Position numbers and translations under genes: made by a program
Assembly: GCA_902795435.1 (NCBI GenBank)
Contig: CADBLE010000008.1
Span: 28,028-92,027, forward strand
DNA: 64,000 nucleotides
Direction of reading: 5' to 3'
Source of the DNA: an uncultured Pseudomonadota bacterium
GTDB taxonomy: Bacteria; Pseudomonadota; Alphaproteobacteria; Rs-D84
Part shown: piece after piece, positions 17,377 through 17,462 of the stretch
How the letters are laid out: each line of letters opens with the position of its first letter
How positions within the stretch are numbered: position 1 is the first letter of the stretch
Notes under the pieces: model-generated
What the model was told of the DNA's origin: nothing
What the model saw: only the letters and a program-made list of their open reading frames with translations
Databases searched by the model: none

Positions 17377-17436
17377 AACAATCACGCAACGAAACTATCT
17401 GTGTCGCACAACAATCACGCAACGAAACTATCTGTG
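17371..17436. repeat. Perfect 33-bp tandem duplication
   Basis: TCGCACAACAATCACGCAACGAAACTATCTGTG occurs at 17371-17403 and again at 17404-17436; a single, diverged copy is present in cassette B. Confidence 0.9.
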
Positions 17437-17462
17437 TGTGTGTGTGTGTGTGTGTGTGTGTG
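17433..17462. repeat. (TG)15 dinucleotide microsatellite upstream of paralog A
   Basis: Direct count of 15 TG units, about 150 nt upstream of the ATG at 17281; the paralogous site carries (TG)10. Confidence 0.95.

Follow-up and report, generated by a model that had tools for sequence, protein, structure and literature searches.

What does a long dinucleotide repeat do in front of a gene for a secreted protein, and does a change in its length reach that gene through the promoter, the transcript or a reading frame? The question is raised by a contig of an uncultured alphaproteobacterium of the Rs-D84 lineage (CADBLE010000008.1), of which a stretch of 64,000 nucleotides (nt), the window, was analysed as a whole; positions given below are those of the window, and the features described lie on its minus strand unless otherwise stated. 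Here gene A, coding for a cysteine-rich protein with a Sec-type signal peptide, is preceded by fifteen TG units on the plus strand, read as (CA)15 in the direction of the gene, which an earlier note on the sequence had proposed to be a slipped-strand phase-variation switch. The answer favoured here, which we consider probable, is that gene A is controlled by a phase-variable leader-peptide attenuator, in which (CA)15 is the element that varies; the anatomy of the leader, its conservation, the covariation of its structures and a length polymorphism at a sister locus are all observed.

The tract is perfect and lies at 17433–17462, where Tandem Repeats Finder reports 15.5 copies with a 100% match; these are the coordinates that had been given for it, and the distance to the ATG of gene A (17281–17279) is 151 nt. 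Runs of TG of 12 nt appeared in 0 of 100 dinucleotide-preserving shuffles. A second tract, (TG)10, is found at 28355–28374, 122 nt upstream of the paralogous gene B (ATG at 28232), and the next dinucleotide run of the window by length has 5 units, which bears out the scarcity of simple repeats noticed before. The comparison of the two cassettes fared less well: the tract of B was said to have 10 units between exactly the same flanks, and the unit number and the local identity stand, the latter covering 9 nt towards the promoter (AGTTTTCTA) and 17 nt towards the gene (GATAGTTTCGTTGCGTG), but further out the identity ends, as a 78-nt segment of A is missing in B and a perfect 33-nt duplication is present in A and missing in B. 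Nor are A and B otherwise near-identical; their proteins share only about 50% identity, so that they are old paralogs, and since they have diverged, the difference in tract length between them is not the direct evidence of instability that it had been taken for.

Read in the direction of transcription, the leader of gene A begins behind the intrinsic terminator (17557–17585; terminator scan) of an upstream gene, assigned by Pfam to the GNAT acetyltransferases. This terminator sequence recurs upstream of B and in L007/L048, as near-identical copies before related modules, and it would insulate the module from upstream transcription. It is followed by a candidate extended -10 promoter, TTTTTGGTATAAT (17522–17534; hexamer TATAAT at 17527–17522), which sits 60 nt upstream of (CA)15 and is kept at the same place in 10 loci, including L007, L061, L195, L038, L047, L048, L011, L190 and L194; the promoter call is based on this cross-locus conservation, not on the consensus promoter scan. 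In L007, L061 and L195, the element is the only one between the upstream terminator and the Shine–Dalgarno (SD) sequence and ATG of the family gene itself, whereas in gene A it precedes an SD-like GGGGGA (17501–17506, read from the sequence) and, 9 nt further on, the GTG (17491) of an upstream open reading frame (uORF) of 51 codons and a TAA (17336–17491; second in-frame GTG at 17482, stop at 17338–17336). In the alignment of these three direct-promoter loci with gene A, the SD of the family gene stands opposite the SD of the uORF and its ATG opposite the GTG; thus, the uORF, which is predicted to be translated, would use a translation-initiation region that works in sister loci, its signals being homologous to those of directly expressed paralogs.

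The predicted product of the uORF is VKVVKGAVFY(TH)4TQIVSLRDCCATQIVSLRDCCANEIRTRLKTDK*, in which the tract contributes alternating Thr and His codons. In the gene A leader, the remaining two frames have no start codon before the tract, and the restriction to a single frame with a start before the tract is shared by all seven of the other-genome loci compared (L008, L011, L014, L038, L047, L048 and L058), while the truncated copy B, unlike these, has starts in a second frame as well. The perfect 33-nt direct duplication (17371–17436), recognized by Tandem Repeats Finder, by alignment with B and by translation, consists of two copies of 11 codons each, and it lengthens the leader with the long frame staying open. 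The leader of gene A hence presents a simple repeat, with a unit that is not a multiple of three, inside a short open reading frame (ORF) downstream of the putative promoter.

Beyond the tract, the two other frames end early (17415–17430), at a TAG (17430–17428, +2 after the tract) and at a TGA (17417–17415, +15), which are 76 and 63 nt, respectively, upstream of the stem of a terminator. Before this terminator comes hairpin 1, a 10-base-pair (bp) palindrome (TTGTGCGAAT GAA ATTCGCACAA; 17356–17378) with a folding energy of -11.9 kcal/mol (z -3.6) and compensatory changes at 3 of its 10 pairs among 6 leaders; it is a candidate RNA polymerase pause hairpin, or possibly a protein-binding palindrome. 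The leader terminator itself (17307–17351; terminator scan) has a 20-bp stem, a 3-nt loop and a U7 run, an energy of -24.4 kcal/mol (z -7.9) and double compensatory changes at 7 of the 20 pairs among 7 leaders; it stands between the uORF and gene A, ending 25 nt before the ATG of the latter, and the TAA of the uORF falls inside it, 8 nt into the core 5′ arm. The SD region of gene A (AAAGGAAAG, 17286–17294, read from the sequence) follows. No promoter was found by the scan between the terminator and the ATG, where there is no room for one, and no promoter-like site was found on the minus strand between the tract and gene A. With a strong terminator directly upstream and no promoter besides the candidate in the leader, gene A needs conditional read-through. 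Searches against Rfam 15 gave no family at or above the gathering score in 17300–17600 or 28250–28430, but only sub-threshold matches that are mostly on the wrong strand or driven by the terminators; a “Thr_leader” match at 28316–28425, obtained in a scan of the 15–30 kb region with a permissive E-value, was rejected because it has the wrong strand and owes its score to the TG run and a terminator.

With these elements, control of gene A may be pictured as follows. Transcription would start from the conserved extended -10, about 60 nt upstream of the tract, with a predicted first nucleotide about 7 nt past 17522, and a ribosome starting at the SD and GTG would translate the uORF through the tract as Thr-His repeats. 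As one repeat unit has 2 nt, the frame of the ribosome on leaving the tract would depend on the unit number n modulo 3. When n mod 3 = 0, as for n = 15, the frame would be open for 94 nt, through hairpin 1, and end at the TAA in the 5′ arm of the terminator; the ribosome trailing RNA polymerase would cover this arm, the terminator would not form and gene A would be transcribed (ON). In the other two frames, release would occur at the TAG (+2) or the TGA (+15), 63–76 nt before the terminator, which would then form and leave gene A OFF. Slipped-strand mispairing would alter n at high frequency, making the switching stochastic and reversible. If so, tract length modulo 3 should predict read-through past the U-tract.

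Masked folding of the leader is consistent with this picture: with a ribosome footprint of 30 nt placed at the TAG or the TGA the terminator remained intact, whereas at the TAA the footprint covered the 5′ arm, the loop and part of the 3′ arm and abolished it. No antiterminator pairing emerged when the post-tract region or the tract was paired with either terminator arm, the best duplex having -7.3 kcal/mol vs. -25.2 kcal/mol for the terminator; as these duplexes are weak, a trp-like model of alternative structures was dropped in favour of direct ribosome occlusion. In support of the attenuator, paralogs having a different, covarying riboswitch-like leader carry a terminator at the same position, which is the same attenuator logic.

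The relation between unit number and stop position can be followed across loci. In gene A, 15 units lead the uORF to the TAA in the terminator arm, and one unit more or less to a stop 2 or 15 nt past the tract. Leaders of what may be called type I-a (A, L038, L048 and L190) have the stops of their three frames at +2, +15 and +61 (+94 in A), the last being the TAA that falls in the arm of the terminator. Type I-b comprises L008, L047 and B; there, a 1-nt length difference puts the long frame in another phase, with the same terminal TAA. Outside the long frame, the stops of the leaders lie at +2 and at +15 or +19. Taking the divergent uORF lineages together, all 10 have at least one frame that enters or passes the terminator stem or comes as close to it as 7 nt or less, and all 10 have at least one whose stop follows the tract by 2–4 nt, with 29 nt or more left before the stem. 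Among 45 distinct cassettes, T and A occupy positions +2 and +3 after the tract in 89% and 93%, respectively, and A or G, completing a TAA or TAG, position +4 in 84%; a stop codon so nearly universal right after the tract bears the mark of selection for an immediate stop in one frame. By this logic, the consensus sequences of A (n = 15), L190 and L048 are predicted to be ON, and those of L191, L038, L011, L008, L047, L014, L106, L197 and B to be OFF.

Evidence that such a tract changes length comes from two contigs of different samples, L190 and L191, which code for the same protein, P0002 (66% identical to A). They show no mismatch over 4212 nt and a single gap, (CA)24 vs. (CA)20, and since only the unit number differs, this is direct evidence of a change in length, obtained at this sister locus and not at gene A's own tract. 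With 24 units (n mod 3 = 0) the uORF ends in the terminator arm and with 20 at +15, so that two of the three states are realised. Together with the finding of (CA)n tracts of 10–27 units at the same place in other genomes, the difference of 4 units, and of nothing else, at the sister locus supports the phase-variation switch of the earlier note, and the tract is best described as a supported slipped-strand contingency switch for a family of secreted paralogs. The same two contigs contain tandem modules (1150–1330 in L190): the first, promoter-proximal SD and GTGAAAGTCGTGA start are disrupted, with no tract and an early stop, and a second module of SD, start and (CA)n follows about 110 nt later, indicating that leader modules duplicate and decay.

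Several points weigh against the attenuator or narrow it. Promoter activity of TTTTTGGTATAAT, translation of the uORF, its coupling to termination and the assignment of ON and OFF to the frames are all things that we infer from the sequence; the -35 of the promoter is weak, which is why the site is absent from the list of the consensus scan, and hairpin 1 has a candidate role only. When the regions between tract and terminator were shuffled, one frame stayed open to the terminator in 54–87% of cases, depending on the lineage; the p combined from 10 lineages is about 0.06, a weak signal that was not used as proof. The one-in-three logic is not universal, as the distant lineages L083, L102, L077 and L078 have two frames near the terminator. 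Moreover, the nucleotides 5′ of the tract are conserved in any reading frame, a motif that the attenuator leaves unexplained. Finally, the contig with gene A in the ENA (L001, STEW19-1 scaffold_5286) breaks off within the conserved leader, 69 nt before the ATG, and leaves the tract of gene A unspanned; for protein B and P0007 no independent records exist.

The attenuator has to be compared with other ways in which the tract could act, or fail to act. The earlier note had drawn analogies with Haemophilus hif, where the repeats set promoter spacing, and Neisseria nadA, where they lie upstream of the promoter; a switch of this promoter type, known also from porA, would have the tract in or just upstream of the promoter, altering how far -35 and -10 are apart or how an activator or UP element is phased. 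The analogies do not carry over, as the tract of gene A is found neither between a -35 and a -10 nor upstream of the core promoter, but downstream of the only credible promoter, inside a short ORF and with a terminator before the gene. A weak -10-like TATAAA does occur 17 nt downstream of the tract in B and the type I-b variants, and the end of the tract could serve as its -35; however, the type I-a variants, gene A included, have no such -10, and a -35 inside the repeat would leave the spacing unchanged by tract length. As the conserved extended -10 precedes the tract by 60 nt, tract and gene have a 20-bp terminator with U7 between them, and the conserved SD, start codon and frame-specific stops would be superfluous, a promoter switch is very improbable. 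The least probable of the readings weighed is that the alternating CA/TG run is a recombination or Z-DNA element, marking the 5′ boundary of exchangeable cassettes and promoting gene conversion among paralogs, that is, antigenic variation and not an on/off change. The conserved ends of A and B, with about 90% identity, around a middle of 45–55% identity would suit it, and so would the cassette replacement seen downstream of clpB; however, most family members, exchanged ones included, have no tract, L190 and L191 differ in unit number with no recombination, and the architecture of ORF and stops is left unexplained.

Two further explanations place the tract in the transcript without a controlling reading frame. 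One, which we regard as unlikely, is a length-dependent effect of the 5′ untranslated region exerted without translation, either by Rho loading on the C-rich, G-poor CA run or by pairing with a GU-rich segment that alters processing or stability; its outcome would be graded, not binary. The tract does lie in a 5′ leader, it pairs weakly with the GU-rich post-tract segment (duplex of -11.1 kcal/mol), and the 5′-untranslated repeats of hmw1 acting with RNase III in Haemophilus influenzae offer a precedent (PMC12721329). In the minimum-free-energy fold, however, the tract is unpaired; the conserved SD and start, the near-universal TAA or TAG stop and the frame open into the terminator arm would be left without explanation, and the same cassette is clearly coding in relatives where it is fused to signal peptides. 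Like gene A, the systems of hif (TA), nadA (TAAA) and the hmw1 heptamers have an intergenic repeat of variable unit number upstream of an adhesin or surface gene, but they work by promoter spacing, regulator binding or RNase III processing and use no reading frame, whereas the tract of gene A comes after the putative promoter, has no pairing in the predicted fold and lies in an ORF. The other explanation, also unlikely and ranked behind the RNA effect, takes promoter, SD, start and tract as an evolutionary fossil, the relic of a fused-type 5′ end cut off by a recombined-in gene cassette with its own hairpin and SD, so that the tract slips and controls nothing. Exchange of leader-plus-gene cassettes at orthologous slots, the decay of copy B by its 78-nt deletion and the disrupted first module of L190 all agree with it. 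Gene A, however, is an intact conserved gene with no other promoter and a strong terminator directly upstream, which needs conditional read-through; no fewer than 10 divergent lineages have the uORF and terminator with SD, start and stops all intact, also before unrelated genes, and the 33-nt duplication in A preserves the long frame.

The leader-peptide attenuator, which is preferred over these explanations, resembles one system that has been worked out by experiment. In Streptococcus gallolyticus, the pil1 and pil3 pilus loci code for a leader peptide with GCAGA repeats in its coding sequence and a stem-loop terminator behind it; a leader stop at least 28 nt upstream of the terminator gives low expression, and one within or after it gives high expression by ribosome-induced destabilisation, as was shown by mutating the start and stop codons and by deleting the terminator (Danne et al. 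2014, PLoS Pathog, PMC3894217). The order of promoter, short leader ORF with a repeat whose unit is not a multiple of three, stem-loop terminator and gene for a surface or secreted protein is the same at gene A, where repeat number likewise shifts the leader stop from at least about 28 nt upstream of the terminator (76 or 63 nt) to within it (TAA in the arm), and no antiterminator is needed in either case. The two are unrelated in sequence and occur in a Firmicute and in a reduced-genome alphaproteobacterium; the repeat is a GCAGA pentanucleotide in the former and a CA dinucleotide in the latter, the target a pilus operon vs. a single secreted Cys-rich protein, and the ON-like frames are two of three in pil1 and one of three here. 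Unlike pil1, the present system also has signal-peptide-fused forms, a frame-independent 5′ motif, a hairpin between tract and terminator and three interchangeable leader types; and while pil1 is proven by experiment, the control of gene A is predicted from sequence.

Other known systems share single aspects of the arrangement. Ribosome-coupled attenuation without an antiterminator is found in Escherichia coli pyrBI, and classical leader-peptide attenuation in trp and his; there, as proposed here, translation of the leader up to or through the terminator decides read-through, and an upstream hairpin may synchronise RNA polymerase and ribosome, but the signal is metabolic (UTP, charged tRNA), whereas here it would be a heritable and reversible repeat number in the DNA. 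Intragenic phase variation is exemplified by Neisseria opa with its CTCTT repeats. Helicobacter pylori oipA has CT repeats in the signal-peptide region (PMC10564699). With oipA and opa the gene A system has in common a 5′ repeat (a dinucleotide, as in oipA) that sets the frame, an ON state in one of three frames and multi-paralog surface proteins, and fused-type relatives in other Rs-D84-like contigs (e.g., L111 and L188) are exactly of this intragenic type. The tract of gene A, in contrast, is not in the structural gene but in a separate 51-codon ORF, 151 nt upstream, with a terminator in between, so that OFF is predicted to act on transcription and to yield no truncated protein.

Beyond S. 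gallolyticus, no second example of leader-peptide repeat slippage combined with transcription attenuation was found in the searchable literature, and “leader peptide”, “terminator” and “gallolyticus” are terms that a review on phase variation from 2025 does not contain. The gene A system would thus be a variant of a known but rare mechanism, so far experimentally shown only in S. gallolyticus pili; if the attenuator is real, this independent, sequence-unrelated alphaproteobacterial version would make it a convergent and general solution. It would also give a first view of how the secreted and surface repertoire varies in uncultured gut symbionts with reduced genomes below 1 Mb (Candidatus Enterousia, Rs-D84). 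On the practical side, uORFs of this kind are unannotated, the conserved leader breaks assemblies and gene callers choose wrong starts; the starts of P0068 and P0104 (L008 and L011), for example, were set 36 nt downstream of the likely ATG.

The spread of the arrangement was surveyed in 68 genome loci encoding family members. Tracts of (CA)10 to (CA)27 lie 140–180 nt upstream of the ATG in L008, L011, L014, L038, L047 and L048, and (AG)23 takes their place in L058; at the tract-bearing genome loci, the frame with an SD-preceded start reads through the tract in every case. A metagenome scan with GCAGNNNNCTA(CA)n returned many eukaryote-like microsatellites and about 50 bacterial cassettes, the latter sharing the 5′ motif ...CGCTGAAA(C/G)CCGCAG..CTA. 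About 30 of the metagenomic loci are of the fused type, in which the cassette opens a long ORF and the tract comes just before the hydrophobic core of the signal peptide, so that the cassette itself is translated there, a point in favour of the attenuator; their ON/OFF calls depend on a heuristic choice of start codon and were not relied upon. About 17 are of the uORF type, with a short ORF, a terminator hairpin and U-run, an SD and the ATG of a separate gene, which does not always belong to this family.

The motif before the repeat, ..AAnnCGCTGAAA(C/G)CCGCAGAAnnCTA, present in the window at 17463–17491 and compared in about 45 cassettes from loci L008–L191, is conserved at the nucleotide level in contigs of 33–54% GC, and it also precedes the (AG)23 of L058. 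An explanation at the peptide level was rejected, since start codons occur in more than one frame and the variation does not follow third codon positions. Being conserved regardless of frame, and even before (AG)n, the motif points to a function in the nucleic acid, e.g., as a site for a slippage or cassette-transfer factor. This leads to a broader reading, possible but doubtful, in which the tract would be part of a portable, self-contained Rs-D84 phase-variation cassette made of insulating terminator, promoter, SD, start, the motif ...CGCTGAAA(C/G)CCGCAGAAnnCTA, (CA)n and an immediate stop; the cassette would have two deployments, as signal-peptide fusion and as uORF attenuator, and, behind one promoter and even within one chromosomal slot, would be interchangeable with a riboswitch-like leader or no leader.

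Three leader types are found behind the same promoter: none, the CA-uORF attenuator and a riboswitch-like leader of roughly 185 nt (e.g., L194). The last has a multi-helix fold with compensatory changes at 21 of 52 pairs among 10 sequences, and it was located in L012 (1280–1463), L016 (1293–1468), L005 (1289–1470), L003 (737–924), L194 (386–569) and L198 (480–662), and also in L013, L018, L024, L009 and L192. It contains an invariant CCUCCAAC/GGUUGGAGG hairpin and a second copy of CCUCCAAC overlapping the 5′ side of the terminator, which is the layout of a riboswitch expression platform; as no Rfam 15 family matched it at threshold, it is a candidate for a new riboswitch or attenuator. The close relatives P0012, P0014, P0016, P0003, P0005 and P0004 have other leader types than the CA-uORF. 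In the slot downstream of clpB (L193 vs. L198/L199), the flanks are 95–97% identical between strains but enclose either a CA-leader gene or a riboswitch-leader gene, the two being 49% identical, so that whole leader-plus-gene cassettes have been exchanged; the family thus evolves by cassette replacement or gene conversion.

Gene A (16067–17281) codes for 404 amino acids (aa), Cys-rich and with a Sec-type signal peptide (MKNKIFLSSMLIMSVAPAMA/E) read by eye; gene B (26997–28232) codes for 411 aa, 50% identical to A with conserved ends and a variable middle, and likewise has a Sec-type signal peptide, by eye, and many conserved cysteines. No Pfam domain was found in A or B, and the AlphaFold model of A (mean predicted local distance difference test score, pLDDT, 71.5) gave no fold match in the PDB, the best E-value being 0.23. 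The homologues of the family belong to metagenome-assembled genomes from the gut, which go under the names Candidatus Enterousia or Alphaproteobacteria bacterium and each carry many paralogs; Enterousia is placed in the uncultured order Rs-D84, with genomes below about 1 Mb, and the organism of the window is a gut alphaproteobacterium like Candidatus Enterousia. When the two loci are aligned (15930–17600 for A, 26860–28440 for B), the ends, that is, leader and N-terminus and C-terminus and trailer, are 70–93% identical and the middle 45–55%.

The leader of copy B is reduced. Its 78-nt deletion joins the terminator of ssb directly to ...GTGCTAGTTTTCTA(CA)10, and promoter, SD and original start are gone; around the tract (28355–28374) a vestigial uORF is left (VLVFYTHTHTHR*, 28350–28388), with no SD and a TAG 2 nt after the tract, followed by hairpin 1 (28331–28309) and the leader terminator (28304–28262), then U8 (28262–28331 in all). 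As promoter and uORF start are lost and n = 10 gives an early stop, B is probably silent or dependent on read-through from ssb.

The 3′ trailer of gene A (15964–16066), with a CUCUCCC motif and a terminator, was delimited by alignment with that of B (26892–26996). Over roughly 98 nt the two are about 93% identical, and each has a GC hairpin, the anti-SD-like CUCUCCC and a terminator; their matches to RF00519 (suhB/mmgR, an alphaproteobacterial small RNA) remain below threshold, with 33.8 bits for A and 27.5 for B vs. a gathering score of 41. The trailers may be small RNAs derived from the 3′ untranslated region, or recombination flanks. Just past the trailer of gene A, at about 15930–15960, lies a GGGAGGGGAGGG element; a similar GC-rich palindrome, CCCCTCCCCATGGAGGGGAGGG, is part of about 110 nt inserted between leader terminator and SD in another CA-type locus (L197, 371–700; P0010).

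Between the two paralogs, the window codes for an autotransporter of 1090 aa (19280–22552, minus strand) with Chlamydia-PMP repeats and a C-terminal beta-barrel; it is a further surface protein, but no simple repeat lies beside it. In other Enterousia genomes, homopolymeric runs of G9 and C9 are found 180–370 nt upstream of family members (L017 and L041), and these may represent another kind of repeat-based switch.

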